The notes below the pieces were generated by a model, which saw only the letters and a list, made by a program, of their open reading frames with translations, ran no database searches and had not been told where the DNA came from. From positions 96,001 to 160,000 of IMG/VR virus record IMGVR_UViG_3300021256_000056: a stretch of DNA of 64,000 nt; one strand, 5' to 3'. Positions 31,242 through 58,048 of this stretch are shown here, piece by piece (the first letter of the stretch is position 1; each line of letters begins with the position of its first letter). This stretch comes from a virus (lineage: Duplodnaviria; Caudoviricetes). Both the position numbers and the translations under genes were made by a program.

Positions 31242-32000
31242 CTAGGTAACATTGTGGTTTTTGATATAATCAATTAGTGTACTTATATCCGTAAAAACTT
31301 TGTTCCCGCTTACTTCATATTTCTGATACTTTTGTTCCATGAAATAAATTAATTCGATACCATTTTCTTTGCAAAGTTCCCTCTTGCGTGCATCCCGCTC
31401 TTTGCGAATTTCCAATGTTTCTCTTTTATCAAATAATTCTTTTCTTAAATAATGTTGTGACCCCTGACATTCAATAGCGCACTTTATACCTGGTATATAA
31501 AAGTCCAAACTGAGTGGTGATAACCATTCGAACTTTTTTTGAGTGACATATTCTATTTTGGCTTCTGCTGCTTCTTTTTCAAAAATACGCTCTAATTTTG
31601 GTTCTTGACACTTTGGACAACCGTGGCCTCTTAAGAAATCATGTGGAAGTGTTTCAAAATCTCCGTGTTCTTGACATGTGACAACAACTTTATCCCTTGC
31701 GTGTGTATAATGTGTTTTCTCAAAAGTATACTTTCCTTCTGGGTACACAGCCATTGCTTCTGCAACCCATTGTTCTGTTGTTTTTTTTCTCCCGTTACAC
31801 CGCGGACATCTAAACCCCTGTAGGTGTGAATATGGCATCTGCCAAAAAATACCATGCTCATTACCTAATACATCTTTTTCATGGCAAACAATCGCAACCT
31901 TTGTTTGAGAGTCAACGTAATCTACTTGAGAATAATCATACTTATCCCCATGTCTTTTACGCGCTTTTTCTATAAATTCGTCCCTCGTGTACTTACTCAT
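31242..32000 (-). CDS. Free-standing homing-endonuclease-like protein (DUF723-type Zn repeats + PD-(D/E)xK/Vsr-like nuclease)
   Basis: EFIEKARKRHGDKYDYSQVDY..C..HG.F...P..HL.G..CPRC occurs twice, then LDFYIP..AIECQGSQHY..D..K..LC.ENGI.LI. Confidence 0.85.
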   Translation of the reverse strand: MSKYTRDEFIEKARKRHGDKYDYSQVDYVDSQTKVAIVCHEKDVLGNEHGIFWQMPYSHLQGFRCPRCNGRKKTTEQWVAEAMAVYPEGKYTFEKTHYTHARDKVVVTCQEHGDFETLPHDFLRGHGCPKCQEPKLERIFEKEAAEAKIEYVTQKKFEWLSPLSLDFYIPGIKCAIECQGSQHYLRKELFDKRETLEIRKERDARKRELCKENGIELIYFMEQKYQKYEVSGNKVFTDISTLIDYIKNHNVT

Positions 32001-50696: not shown

Positions 50697-51218
50697 TTAA
50701 TGCCTTTGCTTTTTTTTCTGCTCTTTTTCGTATTTTTCTCGATATTCAGTAAGTTTTTCGGTTAATACCTTTCTTACGTAATTCGGGTTATTGTTTATGT
50801 CGTGTTCCCAAATTCGTATAACGGGGATTCCGTGTGCCGCGGCCCATAAATCTTTTTCTTTATCTACCCACTCTGTATGCTTCTGCATTTTATTCTTTTC
50901 CTCATGAATAAGACCGTGTCCATGAAAATAATCACCATCCACTTCAATAATAACATTATCTTGAGGGAGATAAAAATCAAAATATCGCCCAATCTCCACT
51001 GCTTTAAACTGATAGACATATTTCACCCCCATCCTGTCTAAAAAATCTTTAGCAAAGCGTTGTTCTAACTTTGAAGTGCCATATTCTGGATGCGGCCTTT
51101 TACTTCTTGGTAAAGGACTTTTCTTAGGGGGCTTGGGTAGCCTTGGGTCTTTTGGTTTAACCGATTTTACCTTAGTATGTTTTATTTTGGGCATTCCTCT
51201 TTTAATCGGTTGTGTCAT
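50697..51218 (-). CDS. Vsr/DUF559-like PD-(D/E)xK endonuclease
   Basis: TSKLE...FDFYLP..IIEVDGDYFHG...D.EKD..A..HGIPVIRIWE; basic Pro/Lys N-terminus. Confidence 0.85.
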   Translation of the reverse strand: MTQPIKRGMPKIKHTKVKSVKPKDPRLPKPPKKSPLPRSKRPHPEYGTSKLEQRFAKDFLDRMGVKYVYQFKAVEIGRYFDFYLPQDNVIIEVDGDYFHGHGLIHEEKNKMQKHTEWVDKEKDLWAAAHGIPVIRIWEHDINNNPNYVRKVLTEKLTEYREKYEKEQKKKQRH

Positions 51219-51540
51219 TCTCGTATGTCTTTTTGAAAAAATAATTGTCTTTCATTGCGTCAAAAATACCCTCAATTTTCTCGCAATTGTCTTTAAATTT
51301 TATTACATCTTCTGAATCCAATTCAAACCACTCTCCTTTAACTCTTTTTCCCGCATACCATTGATGCAACATATTTTCCATTAAAAATGGATGCTTTGTC
51401 TCAAACTTATTCACTAAATATATTTCACCTGAGTTACCAGTCTGGAGTTTCTTAATTCTCTTCTCTACACTTCCTCTTGTAACCCCAATTTTATAGTAAC
51501 CCTCTTTTTCCCAATCTCCTAATATATACACATAGCCCAT
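51202..51540 (-). CDS. GIY-YIG nuclease (T5orf172/MUG113-like)
   Basis: GYVYIL..YKIGVT..VEKRIKKLQTGN..E.MLH..RVKGEWF. Confidence 0.9.
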   Translation of the reverse strand: MGYVYILGDWEKEGYYKIGVTRGSVEKRIKKLQTGNSGEIYLVNKFETKHPFLMENMLHQWYAGKRVKGEWFELDSEDVIKFKDNCEKIEGIFDAMKDNYFFKKTYENDTTD

Positions 51541-51647: not shown

Positions 51648-52142
51648 ATGAAAACAACGAAACAAAATATCAATGAAATAAAAAGAATCGCTAAATCTAT
51701 GCCTAAATCCATAAACGAGGCTGTTTATGAAGAATTTAGTGATGCAAATAGTGATTTGCAACCAGAAGATGATATGAGGAAAAAGATGGCAGTTCCTGCC
51801 GCTCAGGGTCCTGTTGTTGACGGTCCACAGGGTGAAGATGAACCTTCTGCACCTGCAGTAGATAATGGCGCTGTTGAAGCCCCTGTTACTGATGCTGGGG
51901 CTGCTGATATGGGTGCCGCCGCTGATATGGGGGAGGAAAAAGAAGGAGAAGATTCTTTAAACGTTGAGCAATTTGTTGATGATATCCGTAAGAAATCACT
52001 TAGGGGAATGGCACAACTTGCCGAAAACCCTGATGATGAAAGATATCAGCTTTTGAAAAAGATATGGCAGATTTGTGATAAAAAGCCTGAACAGCAAACT
52101 GCATTTAGTAATCCCAATCAAGTTCCTCAAAAGAAAATATAA
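51648..52142 (+). CDS. Acidic low-complexity protein (164 aa), possibly head-associated
   Basis: CTATTTAT about 30 nt upstream; two INE motifs in the N-terminus; Ala/Pro/Asp-rich middle; helical C-terminus. Confidence 0.7.
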   Translation: MKTTKQNINEIKRIAKSMPKSINEAVYEEFSDANSDLQPEDDMRKKMAVPAAQGPVVDGPQGEDEPSAPAVDNGAVEAPVTDAGAADMGAAADMGEEKEGEDSLNVEQFVDDIRKKSLRGMAQLAENPDDERYQLLKKIWQICDKKPEQQTAFSNPNQVPQKKI

Positions 52143-52157
52143 AAAACATTTTACCTA

Positions 52158-52165
52158 CTATTTAT
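52158..52165 (+). promoter_or_regulatory. Putative late promoter CTATTTAT (tail tube)
   Basis: About 41 nt upstream of the tube ATG. Confidence 0.6.
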
Positions 52166-52206
52166 AAACAAATCAAAGAATAAACAAAAGAAAACATATA
52201 TTAGTC

Positions 52207-52695
52207 ATGTCAGATATTCTTTTAAAAATGCCATTGGTTTACGAGCCATTGAAGAAGAATAGATTTGTCCTCCGCTTCCCTGCAGACCTTGGTATACAGG
52301 AGTGGACGTTGGTTTCTGCAAAGAGGCCTTCAATAAACCAGAATGCGGTTGAGATTCAGTTTTTAAATACATCTACCTGGGTTCTTGGTCGTTATGTTTG
52401 GGAAGATATCACAGTAACTTTCCGTGACCCTATTGGACCTTCAACTTCACAGGCCGCAATGGAGTGGATTAGGCTTGGTTCTGAATCACTTACTGGACGT
52501 CAGGGCTATGCTGCTGGCTACAAGCGCGATATTGAACTTGACATGCTCGACCCAAACGGCGTAGTTGCTCAACGTTGGATATTAAAGAACGCATTTGTAA
52601 CAGTAGCAGACTTTGGAGAACTTTCTATGAGTGATGATAGCCTCGCCGAGGTAACTGTTACGCTTAAGATGGACTATGCAATTCTTGCTTACTAA
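52207..52695 (+). CDS. Tail tube protein (T4 gp19-like)
   Basis: YEPLKKNRFVLRF..RPSI..WEDITVTFRDPI..MEW..GYAAGYKRDI..LDPNG..W.L.NAF..DFGELS..VTLKMDYA. Confidence 0.9.
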   Translation: MSDILLKMPLVYEPLKKNRFVLRFPADLGIQEWTLVSAKRPSINQNAVEIQFLNTSTWVLGRYVWEDITVTFRDPIGPSTSQAAMEWIRLGSESLTGRQGYAAGYKRDIELDMLDPNGVVAQRWILKNAFVTVADFGELSMSDDSLAEVTVTLKMDYAILAY

Positions 52696-52720
52696 TTGAT
52701 TGTAATCATTTATATTATAA

Positions 52721-52752
52721 AAGAGCAGCCTTCCAGGTTGTTCTTTTTTTTT
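52721..52752 (+). terminator. Intrinsic terminator after the tail tube gene
   Basis: AAGAGCAGCC-TTCCA-GGTTGTTCTT (with G-U pairs) plus a long T-tract. Confidence 0.7.
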
Positions 52753-52799
52753 ATTAAATATGTTCGGAATTATCCCTGTGTATTGCAAAGATTGATAGC

Positions 52800-53900
52800 T
52801 TACTTGAACAGGTCTTCCACATCACCAAATTCACCGTTGTTTTCAAAAGGGGATTTTAATTGTTTTGTGGAGAATACTATATATGTTTCACTCATACTGG
52901 CCTCTCCATAGAAGCCCTCCCTGATATTATGAAAAACAACACCATCATAACCAAGTTCCTGAGCTAAACAAGCTATTGATTCATTATCTAATGAAAACCA
53001 GCTACCACGCGCATATCTATTGCGGTTTAAGCCGTGCTCACAATATTTGTCAAACAAATCATTATATGCGTTACAGTTCTGCGGGGTTATTGATATATCA
53101 TTCCATGGTCTACCTTCACAATCAATGTGCAATGGATTTAAAACCCTTGCACATAACGGATAAGTACCGCCATGTCCGAGGTATCCGTCTTCTTCAAACA
53201 TTTTAGCAGTAAGTTCATCCCTTATCTGTTTTGTCGTTGGAAACACCCTTCTAATCCACGCATCCAAAAATCTTCTGTCATTTGGGCTATCATCGCATGA
53301 TGGTGTAAGTATTGGCATACCATTGCGCCCACCAACATAACATAAACGGCCAACATTTTTATTATAATACTTTTCAAAAACCCCCTTGCATATAACGAGC
53401 CATTTACGCGAGTTTTCAATATTCAAACCATATTTTCTATAACTCTCGATTTTTTCTGGTTCGTATGTTTTTTTTAATTCATCATCATATTCGAGTTTAA
53501 TTGTCTCAAACGCATCATCATCAATTAAATAAACTTTATTGGAATCATCACCATGAGTAAAATACTTGTTATACAAATCCAATACATCTTCGTCAGATAA
53601 TTTGTTAAGAGTCTCTTTATTTATGAACATGCGCATATTGCCGCCGCTGAAAAAACTAGCGTCGTTAATACTTGAAAGATGTATAAACGGTGTGTTGAAC
53701 CTGTTAAAACCGAAAGTCCTCGTAGCATGGCCCAATAATAGTGGCCTGCCATTCTTGTCAACCATCTTCGAACCCGCGAACCAACGCTTGAAGTTGTCAC
53801 TCATATATATGTTATCAAGATAATTTTCCCTTAGTATTATCTTTACACATGAGGAAACCATCTCAAATAAATCACTCTCATTTAACATTACTCTATTCAT
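52800..53900 (-). CDS. ART-PolyVal-like ADP-ribosyltransferase with N-terminal LxESDL...ILxE leader
   Basis: NFKRWFAGSKMVDKNGRPLLLGHAT..F..F; YPL.ARVLNPL.ID; ELGYDGVVF; YIVFSTKQLKSPFENNGEF are hallmark ART-PolyVal segments. Confidence 0.75.
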   Translation of the reverse strand: MNRVMLNESDLFEMVSSCVKIILRENYLDNIYMSDNFKRWFAGSKMVDKNGRPLLLGHATRTFGFNRFNTPFIHLSSINDASFFSGGNMRMFINKETLNKLSDEDVLDLYNKYFTHGDDSNKVYLIDDDAFETIKLEYDDELKKTYEPEKIESYRKYGLNIENSRKWLVICKGVFEKYYNKNVGRLCYVGGRNGMPILTPSCDDSPNDRRFLDAWIRRVFPTTKQIRDELTAKMFEEDGYLGHGGTYPLCARVLNPLHIDCEGRPWNDISITPQNCNAYNDLFDKYCEHGLNRNRYARGSWFSLDNESIACLAQELGYDGVVFHNIREGFYGEASMSETYIVFSTKQLKSPFENNGEFGDVEDLFK

Positions 53901-53918
53901 AAAAACAGGCCGTTTTTA

Positions 53919-53926
53919 ATAAATAG
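53919..53926 (-). promoter_or_regulatory. Putative late promoter CTATTTAT (ART gene)
   Basis: 18 nt upstream of ATG 53900. Confidence 0.6.
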
Positions 53927-53934
53927 TTATATAA

Positions 53935-54054
53935 TCAGTAAGGTACTGATAATTTCACAAGACTTGCGAATCCGTCCTCAACCTTGCGGTGATTCATACG
54001 GAAGCAGAATTCATCCATATGGGTTTACATATGCTTTACCGACATATGTTTATA
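53935..54054 (-). pseudogene. IS1595-family (ISXO2-like DDE) transposase C-terminal relic
   Basis: Manual translation YKHMSVKHM*THMDEFCFRMNHRKVEDGFASLVKLSVPY* matches the IS1595 C-terminal pattern YHxxSxKHLQxYxDEFCFRxNxR; in-frame TAA at the Gln position. Confidence 0.7.
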
Positions 54055-54055
54055 T

Positions 54056-54093
54056 AAAAAAAATAAGTAGAGTATTATACTCTACTTATTTTT
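54056..54093 (-). terminator. Intrinsic terminator after the sheath gene
   Basis: Perfect AAAAATAAGTAGAGTA-TTA-TACTCTACTTATTTTT hairpin. Confidence 0.8.
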
Positions 54094-54109
54094 CATTATG
54101 TTAGTATTT

Positions 54110-56752
54110 TTACTGGTCAAATGAGACGCTTTCTGGATAAATTGTAAATGTGAGGTCGATGTATTCAAGAGTAGGTGTTGGCTTAATCTTGATTGTGCAA
54201 GGGAGAGTGTGTGCATCTCTTGCTTCGACTGAATCATCTACAATAATTTGGTAGTCGTAAATACCTCTATTTGCTTTCACATTAGCAAGGATAGGGTCAA
54301 CGATGCTCATGAATTGATTCTTCAAAGTATCATCATACTGGTCGAAGATGAGTTGTTTAGCGCTTGAGCTAATAAGTTTCTTAACTCTAATCATGAGACG
54401 ACGTACATTGACACGATTGAGAGGGCTATCTACATTATACATGGTCTTGTTACCCCAAATCTTAACACCGTCAACTGCAAATGTCTTTACGGGGTTAATA
54501 CCTGCAGCATATACAGTATCTTCGTCATCAAGTTTGGTCTTAAGGCAAGCACGTACGCAATTAACATTACCGCGGTTAATACCTGCAGGTGCAAACCAAG
54601 GATATGCGGTGTTATCTGTGTAGGCAAGATTTCTAACAACGTCTTTTGTTACAGGGAGGTCGATGTAGATATTCTCACTTGCATCGAAGAATTTAATCCA
54701 AGGCCAATATGTTGAAGCGTATGATGAGTTGATTGAAGTATTTTCAAGCTTATCAACAACTTCGTCGGCAGTTTCAGAGTTAGGTGCAGTGGGTATATAG
54801 AGTGCATCACCACCGCGTCCGTCATCACTATCTTCAATCATATCGAGAGCGTCTTCAACAAGGAGCTCGTTGCGGTCCCAATCAATACCAGGGGTTGCAA
54901 AAATGTTAATATCGTAACCCTCAGGATTTGCGAACTGACGATAGGCACCAAGGAATGCATAGTAATCGCTATTGATTGCATTGATAGGCAGGTCAAGATT
55001 TGCCTCGATATCCCCTTCAATTTGTGTATATGCTGTTCCAGTATACTTGTTAGCTTTAAACTCATCAGTATTGGTTCTTTCTTTCCTGCGAACATCCCAA
55101 CCATCAAATCCACCGTAGAAACATACAGTAAACTTACGGATGTTAGTATCAGCATAAAGTGTATCCTTCATGTATTCCTCTGAAAGAATTCTAGGAATCT
55201 TGTTGGTTTTATCAGCGATGCCCGTTGTTCCATCTACTGCGGTAAATACACATGTACTAATGCCGCTAACACCTAATACGGTAGCGGTTTTTCCGCCGCA
55301 AAGATTCATAATTGAATCAAGATGGAAACCGTTAGACATTTCGGTCCCTGCTACGTCACCCTTAAATTTGAGGACGTCAACATCAACACCGACTCTGCTT
55401 GAGAAACCGAAATATTGTCTCTTTGCTTTGACATTGTAATCAAATGTTGTGTTATAGCATACTGGGAAATTCTTAGTTCCATCTGTGAACTTATGGAGAG
55501 GATATCCAAGGAATCCACAAGGTACTGAATCCGCGATAAGAGCTTCATCTTCATTCATTTCAAGAGCAATGTACTTAGACTTAAGCTCGTATGCTCCGTC
55601 GATAGTACCAATGCGAAGAGCAACATAATTCTTGCTTCCCTTTACGAGATTACATCCAGAGAATTTCTCAAGAATGACGGGTGAACTATCGCTGTCGCCC
55701 ATTGGCCTTACAACAAGGTCGAAAGTCTTCTCGTTTGGTTTAATATTCTGAATGGAGATTTTAACTTCGGAATTAGCATTGTCACCATCAGAGAGCGTGT
55801 ATGCACGGAAGAGTGCGAGTACGCTGGCAGTACTACTTGTGGTTCCCGTTACTTTGGAATCAGCTTGTGAGACAAGCCAAGGTGTAACGGCGCATTTATA
55901 AGCAGATTTATAGTCATTCAATTTGGCTTCAGCTGTTAATTTCTCAACTTTAATTGTGAAACTTGCTCCACTATCAAGCTTTTCAATCATATCCCTGATT
56001 GCATAGTCGTAAACCTCCTCAACATAGAGAAGACCGTTACCACCTAGAGGGTCACCACCAAGTACATTATAGATATAATCCTTGTCGCCATAATTCAATG
56101 AAACGCTATACTCACTAGTAGCGGTACTAGCGCTCACACTCACTTTAAGAGTGAATTTACCTAAATTTTCGGATGTTATGGTTGTACCACTTGTTTCTGC
56201 GGTGGTTGCCTTAATTACATTACAATTGCCGTCATAAATAACTTCCTTATATTCAGAAACTTCAACACCAGCAACATACTCATTGTATGCATCACCACTA
56301 GGGGTTGCGCACCCGCCACCCTGGCTTTTACCGAATTTGCCTTTTGAGCGTAATACGGCTACTGCATAAGTACCGTTGAGTGCTGTATTGCTAGTATTAT
56401 TAGAAACCGTAGCCCTTACAACCCATGCTTTTCCTGCTTCGTAGCCAGAAAGACCAAGTACGCGGCAAACATAGAGTTGTTTCGACTCTTTTAGGTATTC
56501 TTTTGCAATATATGGCAATTCATATTTAGGTAGGCCATTACCCTTATACTTCTCTGCAGAAGTAGGGCCAAAATAGTCTTCATATTCAGACCATTTTTCT
56601 ACTTTAATAGGTTCGAACGCGGGTCCCTTTACTGTTTCACCAGCAAGACCAAGGCTGGTTATACCCAGGCTTTTAACTGAATAAGTAACATCCTGTTCCT
56701 TACTGTAAATACCTGGAGAAACATGGTTCCCTCTTGCATTGTTTATAATCAT
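54110..56752 (-). CDS. Tail sheath protein (T4 gp18-like)
   Basis: VSPGIYSKEQD..GETVKGPAFEP; FYGGFDG; YASTYWPW; PWFAPAGINRG; INPV..GVKIWGNKT..LNRVNVRRL; IKPTPTLEYI. Confidence 0.95.
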   Translation of the reverse strand: MIINNARGNHVSPGIYSKEQDVTYSVKSLGITSLGLAGETVKGPAFEPIKVEKWSEYEDYFGPTSAEKYKGNGLPKYELPYIAKEYLKESKQLYVCRVLGLSGYEAGKAWVVRATVSNNTSNTALNGTYAVAVLRSKGKFGKSQGGGCATPSGDAYNEYVAGVEVSEYKEVIYDGNCNVIKATTAETSGTTITSENLGKFTLKVSVSASTATSEYSVSLNYGDKDYIYNVLGGDPLGGNGLLYVEEVYDYAIRDMIEKLDSGASFTIKVEKLTAEAKLNDYKSAYKCAVTPWLVSQADSKVTGTTSSTASVLALFRAYTLSDGDNANSEVKISIQNIKPNEKTFDLVVRPMGDSDSSPVILEKFSGCNLVKGSKNYVALRIGTIDGAYELKSKYIALEMNEDEALIADSVPCGFLGYPLHKFTDGTKNFPVCYNTTFDYNVKAKRQYFGFSSRVGVDVDVLKFKGDVAGTEMSNGFHLDSIMNLCGGKTATVLGVSGISTCVFTAVDGTTGIADKTNKIPRILSEEYMKDTLYADTNIRKFTVCFYGGFDGWDVRRKERTNTDEFKANKYTGTAYTQIEGDIEANLDLPINAINSDYYAFLGAYRQFANPEGYDINIFATPGIDWDRNELLVEDALDMIEDSDDGRGGDALYIPTAPNSETADEVVDKLENTSINSSYASTYWPWIKFFDASENIYIDLPVTKDVVRNLAYTDNTAYPWFAPAGINRGNVNCVRACLKTKLDDEDTVYAAGINPVKTFAVDGVKIWGNKTMYNVDSPLNRVNVRRLMIRVKKLISSSAKQLIFDQYDDTLKNQFMSIVDPILANVKANRGIYDYQIIVDDSVEARDAHTLPCTIKIKPTPTLEYIDLTFTIYPESVSFDQ

Positions 56753-56789
56753 CTTTTTAAGCCTTTATAATTGTCTTATTATTTTCTTA

Positions 56790-56797
56790 ATAAATAG
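56790..56797 (-). promoter_or_regulatory. Putative late promoter CTATTTAT (sheath)
   Basis: About 37 nt upstream of the sheath ATG. Confidence 0.6.
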
Positions 56798-56845
56798 CGT
56801 TAAATATCCAAAAAATCTAAATAGTACATGTGAAAAACATTAATT

Positions 56846-58048
56846 TTAAAGTAATTCGCATTTTACATCTTTCTCTTCAACTATAGTTTCGTCATCTTTT
56901 GTTTCAACGTTAATGTCTTTACATAGTTGTTTTCTATCTAGTTCGCTTTCTACATCATCTTCTCTTTGGTCAAATACCACATCTGGATTATATCCTCGTA
57001 TGATTATACTACCCTCGGAATCTTTCTTAGTTTTGGATAATCCATAAAATCTCAGACTATCACCTTCCTTGAACTCCATTCCTGGTATGAATTCTGCCAT
57101 CGCGCCATTGATTCTGATTTTAAAGTCGGTAATATTATCTAATACTACATCCTCAACCTTAAAATGTGTATTCATGGTAAATGTCACCTCATTTTCACAG
57201 GGTTTAAAATACATATTCAGTTTCAGTGGTTGGAAATAATATGGTGTTTCTTGGGTACCACAAGGGTCTATTTCCTCTATTTCAACATATGCACTATTTT
57301 TAATATTTTCTGGTCCTCCAAAGCGCATTTTTAATACTGGAACCTCTTCGGTTATCATATCTTCCTCGTTAATTATATACGCCATTACCCTGATTTCATA
57401 TGATTGAGAGAAGTATTGTCTGTCGTCCATACTATACTCTGACTCATCGGATATGTTTTCAAGTTTCATTGGAATAAAGTGCCCATTTGGGCGTATATAA
57501 CACTGTATGGCTTTAAATTTATCATTAACCAGTAAGTTAAAGTCATTAAGGAGTTCATATTTGTTAGTTACAAGACTTACAGTATATATCAAATCAACGC
57601 AATAAGGCTGCCTCATCCTATAATCCAAGAAATAGGGGCGTCCATTTTTATCCTGCATTAATGCTCTCTTCATCAAATATGTTCTATTCCCTGGTATGTT
57701 CATGTTTTTATCATGAAGCGTACCTTGTTGGGGGTTGTTTTCCCTTGTAAGAACTTTAAAATTCATCAGCATATTTTTCTGGTCGTCATTGTTCTCCCAA
57801 GTTTCCATGTATTCAGAAAATCGCTGAGCGGAAAAGAGCGCAACGGTAGGTATATCTTTATCTTCAAAAGTAATAGCTAAATCTTTTTCAACCCATTCCT
57901 TAAATGCAATATCAATGTCTTTATATACTAGCGTATTAGGGAGAGGCGTGGAATCTTTGAGGACCTCCTTTACAAGGTTCTCTCTTCCCTCGATTGGGTC
58001 GGGAGTTCTCTTTAATTTGATTATATTTTTATATTTTCTCTGTCCCAT
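56846..58048 (-). CDS. Tail terminator / neck protein (T4 gp15-like, tentative)
   Basis: Between the neck and sheath genes; DIDIAF..QP..VDLIYTV..LNDF pattern. Confidence 0.55.
   Translation of the reverse strand: MGQRKYKNIIKLKRTPDPIEGRENLVKEVLKDSTPLPNTLVYKDIDIAFKEWVEKDLAITFEDKDIPTVALFSAQRFSEYMETWENNDDQKNMLMNFKVLTRENNPQQGTLHDKNMNIPGNRTYLMKRALMQDKNGRPYFLDYRMRQPYCVDLIYTVSLVTNKYELLNDFNLLVNDKFKAIQCYIRPNGHFIPMKLENISDESEYSMDDRQYFSQSYEIRVMAYIINEEDMITEEVPVLKMRFGGPENIKNSAYVEIEEIDPCGTQETPYYFQPLKLNMYFKPCENEVTFTMNTHFKVEDVVLDNITDFKIRINGAMAEFIPGMEFKEGDSLRFYGLSKTKKDSEGSIIIRGYNPDVVFDQREDDVESELDRKQLCKDINVETKDDETIVEEKDVKCELL

Follow-up and report, generated by a model that had tools for sequence, protein, structure and literature searches.

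What an ADP-ribosyltransferase (ART) with an N-terminal leader does between the tail sheath and tail tube genes of a giant gut or rumen phage is the question raised by the gene of P0001, a protein of 366 amino acids (aa). The gene lies in a window of 64,000 nucleotides, the whole stretch analysed here, which covers bases 96001-160000 of a 195,095-bp IMG/VR virus record (IMGVR_UViG_3300021256_000056; Duplodnaviria, Caudoviricetes) rated 53% complete by CheckV; this source genome is named G000, and other viral records are named G001, G002 and so on. The answer preferred here, with a probability of roughly 55%, is that P0001 is an Alt-like enzyme from a different ART clade, packaged in the head, trimmed by the prohead protease and injected. 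The ART would be transcribed alongside the virion genes from its own CTATTTAT-type promoter, and its 25-residue amphipathic leader would dock it on the scaffolding core of a T4-type prohead. The leader would then be cut off by the gp21-type (S77) prohead protease after LRE25, and perhaps at LNE8 too, leaving a freed enzyme of ~340 aa in the DNA-filled head. Upon entering the next host with the DNA, the enzyme would carry out the NAD+-dependent ADP-ribosylation of a macromolecule of that host, most probably a protein, for example one that works in defence or transcription, with the 150-aa helical insert acting as the target-recognition module.

The ART-PolyVal domain, its insert and its active site

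The Pfam family ART-PolyVal (PF18760) matches P0001 with 34.6 bits against a curated cut-off of 31.2 (E 3.9e-8), and the match aligns residues 242-358 with profile positions 49-140. Precomputed annotation places the same family in all of the 26 full-length homologues returned by a protein database search (49-90% identity, 342-493 aa), and in a six-frame PF18760 scan of the whole genome the C-terminal half of the ART alone reaches 28.5 bits. The N-terminal part of the profile, left unmatched by Pfam, is found at residues ~31-75 in the stretch ending in GHAT (Table 1). Hidden Markov model alignments match this N-terminal half to dozens of the canonical ART-PolyVal domains found in polyvalent proteins, and PHROG 21376 matches residues 25-73. 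PF18760 is the only Pfam ART family matched, and P0001 falls outside the Alt/VIP2 (R-S-E) clade.

The AlphaFold (AF2) model of P0001, built with 23 homologues, has a mean predicted local distance difference test (pLDDT) score of 82.6. When its core (residues 39-353) is compared with 48,161 PDB representatives by VIA-align, the best matches are ARTs with modest yet consistent Z scores of 5.2-6.1, led by AcrIF11 (6kyf, Z 6.1) and a domain of the cyanophage A4 pre-ejectosome (9k3a_B, Z 5.9) and including PARP2, ParT, tankyrases, MbcT and NatT. A Foldseek comparison with viral models gives E values of 4.5e-10 to 1e-3, many of them to named ART-PolyVal proteins. A Foldseek search of the PDB with the whole model returns nothing at E<=0.001, and a sequence-profile search of solved structures returns chance-level helical matches to the insert only. 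The family match above the cut-off and the ART neighbours of the model core bear out the earlier description of P0001, made from the sequence before any search (the sequence-only reading), as a stand-alone ART-PolyVal-like domain, and the comparison with PF18760 that it proposed comes out in favour of this fold.

The same reading noted an unrecognised insert of about 170 aa, of which the interruption stands and the size comes out slightly smaller. A 157-aa minimal ART (L014) covers positions 30-75, 235-267 and 315-348 of the family profile, and P0001 spans ~210 residues at the place where ART domains of polyvalent proteins span ~70. Because L014 and the polyvalent domains skip that stretch, the insert is put at ~150-160 aa, beginning at ~76-88 and ending at ~235-240. 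Its residues 120-200 are modelled as helical with a pLDDT of ~90. In the VIA-align comparison with the PDB the insert matches generic helical hairpins only, and an ESM Atlas search with residues 86-240 gives no usable feature match and structural template modelling (TM) scores below 0.4. Judged by family matches and modelled fold, P0001 is a stand-alone ART-PolyVal ADP-ribosyltransferase split by an insert without a recognisable relative.

The ART-PolyVal clade is described as H-Y-D, with the histidine in strand 1, the tyrosine in strand 2 and the aspartate in strand 5, and not as H-Y-E (Iyer et al., PMC5512222). Among 23 homologues with 49-90% identity, H58, H74, F84, D319 (GYDG), E328 (NIREG) and the C-terminal STKQLKSPFENNG are invariant. 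In strand 1, H58 in GHAT aligns with HGT/HGS of the canonical domains, and three of the 23 homologues have HGT in place of HAT. D319 is the likely strand-5 acid and catalytic residue, an assignment made here, since [YF]DG and the hydrophobic strand after it are kept in every canonical ART-PolyVal domain aligned. E328 aligns with the aspartate of NIRDG/NIKDS in canonical domains, and E338 of SETY varies among the 23 homologues (E/T/A/K). For strand 2, the canonical G-[IT]-[YW]-F-T aligns with F72-I73-H74-L75-S76 with an ambiguity of one residue in register; position 72 is F, Y or L, and I73 and H74 are invariant. HAT and SETY had been taken as hints of inactivity or altered chemistry; the hint of inactivity does not hold, because SETY is not the catalytic strand, its glutamate is variable, the clade is H-Y-D, HGT occurs in some homologues, and H58, D319 and E328 are invariant. 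The ART is likely active and its sequence carries no sign of decay. A catalytically dead ART fold acting by binding, as a decoy or inhibitor and packaged or not, would fit a strand-2 tyrosine that is not clearly conserved and a large insert that could be the functional part; it is very improbable in view of the residues H58, D319, E328 and F84, GYDG and STKQLKSPFENNG, all invariant down to 49% identity, and of NAD-pocket motifs that align with the canonical domains.

The leader, its class and the prohead protease

The first ~25 residues had been read as a leader, and the sequence MNRVMLNESDLFEMVSSCVKIILRE agrees with this. In the AF2 model it forms a lone helix (residues 8-29, pLDDT 45-63) without packing against the ART domain. 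Before residue 29, the only strongly conserved positions among the 23 homologues are L23 (>=90%) and E25 (invariant), and E8 is found in most ART homologues. The favoured site for a predicted cut lies after LRE25, because conservation of the leader class stops exactly there and L23 and E25 are nearly or fully invariant; LNE8 is a possible second site, like ITE-6 of T4 Alt.

Leaders of the same type occur on other proteins. A model built from the ART N-termini only finds a second open reading frame (ORF) of the source genome (52985..53323, minus strand; 112 aa, MKKNTINLNESQLRKIVKESVKKVLNE..., E 1.2e-7) and a third (80947..81729, MAKIQITESDIKKMVAKTIKMLAE..., E 0.044), and N-termini of the same type also lie at 82851, 184442 and 188931. 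A simple leader pattern is found at seven N-termini of this genome against 1.3 expected. In the 279-kb relative G002, the ART-only model finds at least eight ORFs with the leader 2-11 residues past the start methionine. A search with the 112-aa protein returns seven proteins of 85-134 aa, whose first 27 residues are 83-93% identical and which are unrelated right after the final glutamate. The profile of these leader proteins reaches 5,221 representative clusters at E<=1e-3, and 260 at E<=1e-10, among 1.84 billion proteins, so the genome-wide search for similar leaders proposed by the sequence-only reading is answered well beyond the genome itself. Conversely, a leader model built from non-ART proteins aligns to residues 3-25 of P0001 with its last position on E25, which confirms both the boundary and the claim that the leader is common to other proteins and ends in [LI]-x-E. 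Within the set of 23 ART-family N-termini, this independent model matches P0013 at E 3.7e-8, P0004 at E 4.8e-7 and P0001 at E 0.004. Judged by these profile matches, the ART leader is one of a very large class of modular leaders whose last residues are [LIV]xE. A limited literature search found none of the leader core strings and no description of an expanded family resembling the T4 capsid targeting sequence (CTS).

The details of the class were counted on the best 147 hits of the 5,221-cluster search. The protein begins with the leader in 116 of them, and 117 hold two or three leaders spaced ~122 residues apart; 248 of ~273 leader copies end in [LIV]-x-E. Because 108 of 157 internal copies lack a methionine, the multi-leader proteins are taken as true chains. 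One cargo exists both as a stand-alone protein (P0033) and as the second module of the two-module P0039. Public metagenome proteins (P0038-P0045, P0066, P0094 and P0119) form chains of 2-4 modules ~120 aa apart, each module behind a ~27-aa leader ending in LxE, and the architecture of such P0038-type chains suggests protease-jointed polyproteins.

The T4-type prohead protease that the sequence-only reading assumed for this lineage is present in its relatives. The nearest relatives with an ART orthologue, G001 (237 kb) and G002 (279 kb), have a portal 54% identical, and both share the gene order terL, portal, Peptidase_S77 (E 1.6e-26, 90 bits), scaffold-like gene and gp23-type capsid gene (E 1e-61). 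Furthermore, among 12 viral records reached through the generic leader, 9 carry an S77 protease, against 3 of 31 control records reached through other ART-PolyVal domains (Fisher p 7e-5; fragments only, p 1e-3). The nine include all three complete genomes (339-393 kb) and six of nine fragments (2-25% complete), and the leader genes of the fragments G005 and G012 have portal, protease, scaffold and major capsid protein (MCP) genes as neighbours. The leader class is tied to S77-protease phages and to head-gene modules. The only S77-bearing controls are L023, L026 and L027 (records G034, G037 and G038; 376-608 kb), and in these the protein opens with a short helix that ends in E (MRLFDLFE.., ..MRLCED..), and the ART comes next.

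Of the five [LI]xE sites of the G002 MCP, four fall within the first 60 residues and one within the other 584. The G002 scaffold-like protein (L059:5173-6504, minus strand) has leader-like N-terminal segments (ITESTIKSLLEDE; …KGITESTIKSLLEDEV…) and four [LI]xE sites in its first 50 residues. There are hints that the leaders may mimic scaffold segments. For the S77 protease of G002 (L059:6592-7314, minus strand) and the first 45 residues of a leader protein from the same genome, a complex prediction run without controls scores 0.00 and is uninformative either way.

These associations bear on two other explanations. An ART that is made late and acts in the cytoplasm on host or phage proteins or nucleic acid, never packaged and with its N-terminal helix serving oligomerisation, regulation or partner binding, has precedents in T4 ModA and ModB, which are non-packaged ARTs (PMC5512222). 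It would also suit a self-contained gene in a plastic zone rich in homing-endonuclease-like genes. It is nevertheless unlikely, as the leader class tracks S77-protease phages and head-gene modules, the leader ends in a protease motif exactly at the conservation boundary, and a cytoplasmic role leaves one tag on thousands of unrelated proteins unexplained. Alternatively, the leader could be a tag for other shared machinery, such as a modifying enzyme of the kind that acts on ribosomally synthesised and post-translationally modified peptides (RiPP-like), a chaperone or a translocase, instead of a signal for head targeting and cleavage. Two candidates for such a role were rejected: a radical-SAM enzyme, which is present in the source genome without a counterpart in the leader-rich G002 and is distant from leader genes, and PF25734 (RelB_like_antitoxin, 'putative antitoxin'), part of which weakly resembles the leader and which matches only leader-like helices below its cut-off. 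The co-occurrence and proximity that are seen are with the S77 protease, and a tag of this other kind is quite improbable.

Beyond the proposed head packaging of P0001 itself, a wider proposal can be made tentatively, at somewhat less than even odds: the ART may belong to a very large cargo system, apparently not described before, of T4-type megaphages from gut and rumen, in which a 25-27-aa helix ending in L-x-E is both the prohead address and the protease-cut joint of (leader-cargo)n chains, and the insert is a new target-recognition module. Candidate members of the system are two ART-PolyVal enzymes, an S-adenosylmethionine (SAM) lyase and thousands of orphan modules.

Timing, position and other candidate cargos

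The motif CTATTTAT lies upstream of the ART, sheath, tube, portal and terL genes, in line with the earlier claim that one motif precedes both the ART and virion genes. The window holds 12 copies against 5.9 expected, a number reached in 0 of 100 shuffles, and nine of them precede a gene, in the same orientation as that gene; sheath and tube are two such genes. Genome-wide there are 46 copies, and 30 of the 203 genes have one in the 80 nt before them; these include sheath, tube, portal, terL, an adaptor-like gene, the ART and two other leader genes. The equivalent motif in G002, ATATTTAT, is found upstream of the MCP, scaffold, protease, portal, terL, sheath, tube and ART orthologue genes. Of 10 leader genes, 7 have it upstream, compared with 30 of all 321 genes (p 3e-6), a co-occurrence of leader and motif that the sequence-only reading had proposed to look for. 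Late transcription of the ART can reasonably be inferred, since CTATTTAT and ATATTTAT are common to the ART and the virion genes.

The coordinates of the locus are collected in Table 1. Gene positions and PHROG matches place the ART between sheath and tube, as first described. The gene is a self-contained unit, because it has its own CTATTTAT upstream and a terminator-like hairpin on each side.

Table 1. Features of the P0001 locus, in window positions
Feature	Position	Strand	Basis and remarks
Tail tube gene	52207..52695	+	PHROG 4542, E 7e-26; downstream of the ART, convergent
Terminator-like hairpin	52719..52747	.	Between the convergent tube and ART genes
Leader-tagged ART-PolyVal enzyme gene (P0001), 366 aa	52800..53900, including stop codon	-	ORF list and translation; PF18760 above cut-off
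ART C-terminal half, residues ~241-358: GGTYPLCARVLNPL, DNESIA, GYDGVVFHNIREG (D319, E328), TYIVFSTKQLKSPFENNGxFG	52827..53180	-	Pfam match, invariant columns, alignment to canonical domains
Insert of ~150 aa, residues ~88-240, mostly helical	53181..53639	-	Absent from minimal and polyvalent ART-PolyVal domains
ART N-terminal half, residues ~31-87: F..WF.GSK.VD..G.P.LLGHAT (H58), strand FIHLS, helix NDASFFSGG	53640..53810	-	HMM alignments, PHROG 21376, invariant H58/H74/F84
Leader MNRVMLNESDLFEMVSSCVKIILRE, codons 1-25; [LI]xE sites LNE8, LFE13, LRE25	53826..53900	-	Predicted amphipathic helix, not packed on the domain
CTATTTAT, candidate late-promoter core	53919..53926	-	19 nt ahead of the ART ATG
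Palindromic terminator-like hairpin	54059..54093	.	Between the end of the sheath gene and the ART promoter motif
Tail sheath gene	54110..56752	-	PHROG 23, E 1.8e-57; same strand, upstream of the ART

The surroundings of the gene vary among relatives. In L001-L003 (from G001, G002 and a near-identical record), an ART orthologue of 51-59% identity follows the tube gene and a DUF723/zinc-finger endonuclease-like gene and precedes DUF559-like and baseplate-hub-like genes, all on one strand. The source genome differs from these in that the ART comes directly after the sheath and the tube pair is inverted. The orthologue in L002:9989-11058 and L003:9989-11058 carries a frameshift past residue ~113 that splits it into ORFs of 125 and 193 aa; the intact version of this orthologue is P0024, which stands for 967 member sequences. 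The zone from sheath to baseplate hub is crowded with homing-endonuclease-like genes, such as the T5orf172/MUG113 and DUF559/Vsr-like genes at window 50697-51540 (minus strand), and in the relatives (L001:3372-9928) there are several DUF723/treble-clef paralogues akin to window 31242..32000. The intergenic stretch that separates the sheath terminator from the ART promoter motif (window 53938-54024, minus strand) has the translation THMDEFCFRMNHRKVEDGFASLVKLSVPY, presumably a relic resembling the C-terminal end of IS1595-family transposases; a Pfam search with these 29 aa matched nothing. In a DNA contig from another gut metagenome (run X2), window 52763 is joined to 54056 with seven other letters between, so that the ART, promoter motif and relic are skipped, a weak hint with 24 nt on one side of the joint. 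A megablast search of a phage collection with window 52000-57000 gives zero matches.

The position of the gene also raises the idea of a tail-borne cargo, loaded through its N-terminal signal into the tube lumen, baseplate or spike and delivered when the tail contracts, in the manner of extracellular contractile injection systems and type VI secretion. It draws on the place of the gene between sheath and tube here, and between tube and baseplate hub in relatives at ~50% identity. However, the leader class is mostly found beside portal, protease, scaffold and capsid genes and ends in a head-protease motif, the gene position varies among relatives, and the cassette is possibly absent from one DNA contig (a weak sign). 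Moreover, T4 alt is reported near baseplate genes, yet its product is a head protein (PMC5512222). Tail loading is the least probable of the explanations weighed here.

The head-packaging interpretation of P0001 faces several points that weigh against it. In the source genome and its relatives alike, the ART gene is part of the tail module and not of the head module. Neither a Peptidase_S77 nor a gp23-type capsid gene was found in the source record, which at 53% completeness is only half a genome; the candidate head genes near the portal (encoding 310-aa, 519-aa and 503-aa proteins, and others) match no protease or capsid family in Pfam or PHROG. The leader, at 25-27 aa, is longer than the 10-19 aa of the T4 CTS and has no evident sequence likeness to it. 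In the mature parts of leader proteins, [LI]xE sites number 19 where 25.8 are expected, which is no significant depletion, and at the enzyme itself the strand-2 tyrosine of H-Y-D is not clearly retained at positions F72/I73/H74. Finally, two bovine-gut metatranscriptome runs, with identical results, have RNA contigs on tube and sheath at 90-99% identity and none on the ART, which, being contigs only, are silent on expression.

In addition to P0001, the genome encodes a second ART-PolyVal protein of 663 aa outside the window (188931..190922, minus strand; L039:8931-10922), with PF18760 at E 2.4e-6, below the cut-off. It carries the leader MKKKLIITEGQIKAIRAALLKE and is located between adaptor-like and portal genes. 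A 277-aa protein of G002, leader-tagged as well but without ART, is similar to residues 140-262 of this 663-aa protein. A Pfam scan of a 269-aa G005 protein that looks ART-like by eye gives no match, and a 540-aa protein (L037:2729-4348, plus strand; genome 76729..78351) matches no ART family in Pfam at E<=0.1. Meanwhile, a leader-tagged 256-aa protein of G002 (L060:18609-19376, plus strand) has an S-adenosylmethionine lyase domain (PF23780, E 8e-13) and lies under ATATTTAT. SAM lyase is classically an early anti-restriction function. Particle carriage would best explain this one, because it is useful in the first minute of infection yet stands under a late-type motif with a tag, and the G002 SAM lyase is a candidate packaged anti-restriction enzyme.

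Significance and comparison with known systems

If head packaging of P0001 is true, uncultured animal-gut megaphages have reinvented, from a different ART clade, the T4 trick of a head-packed ADP-ribosyltransferase. The leader would then be a simple sequence handle for listing injected proteins, and the tagged proteins, most of them without a known domain, would be candidate first-minute effectors or anti-defence factors. The use of the leader as an internal joint suggests polyprotein-style delivery, and if the cargo system exists, one late gene would deliver several separate effectors into the next host. The insert-bearing ART-PolyVal family, with at least 26 homologues, is a defined target for biochemistry and might lead to a novel ADP-ribosylation target in hosts of the Bacteroidota type or of the rumen. 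Should the packaging interpretation fail, a well-conserved phage ART that is probably active would remain, of ordinary interest.

T4 Alt is a late, head-packaged and injected ART that loses six residues at ITE-6 (PMC5694885). P0001 resembles it as a phage ART among late-type virion genes in a lineage with a gp21-type S77 protease, with the same proposed logic of loading, clipping and injection. In both, an [LI]-[TN]-E site also falls among the first 6-9 residues (ITE-6 in T4, PMC5694885; LNE8 here). However, Alt belongs to the R-S-E (Alt/VIP2) clade and P0001 to the H-Y-D ART-PolyVal clade (PMC5512222), without a sequence relation outside the fold. Moreover, P0001 has a 150-aa insert, a longer leader of 25 aa with a second invariant LxE, and lacks the C-terminal LxE propeptide.

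The internal proteins of T4 have only a targeting propeptide of 10-19 aa in common; gp21 cleaves after [LI]-x-E, and the internal-protein cargos are diverse, some of them anti-defence (PMC9026906, PMC3012670). Like the CTS of IPI, IPII and IPIII, the leader is a short N-terminal stretch on unrelated proteins that ends in [LI]-x-E, with removal by gp21 being known for T4. Unlike the CTS, it has its own consensus, ..h-[TN]-E-S-[DQ]-L-R-x-I-V-x-E-S-V-K-K-V-L-x-E, occurs in thousands of clusters and also forms internal joints between modules.

P0001 shares its family, by Pfam and by fold, with the ART-PolyVal domains of polyvalent proteins, for which delivery with the invading DNA and modification of host proteins were predicted (Iyer et al. 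2017, PMC5512222). Polyvalent proteins are multidomain chains of 1,000-5,000 aa, whereas P0001 is a stand-alone protein of 366 aa with one catalytic domain, an insert and a leader of detachable type. Its phages are T4-type myophages, and S77 is found in only 3 of 31 other ART-PolyVal records. AcrIF11 (6kyf), a small phage ART that disables a defence protein, is the best neighbour of the ART core (Z 6.1 over 112 residues, rmsd (root-mean-square deviation) 3.3). However, the identity is 14%, the Z score is at the level of fold only and AcrIF11 has neither leader nor insert, so that it gives no clue to the target of P0001. The principle, in the form of Alt and the capsid targeting sequence, already belongs to T4; new here are the ART clade, the insert, and a leader class of this size whose members form chains.

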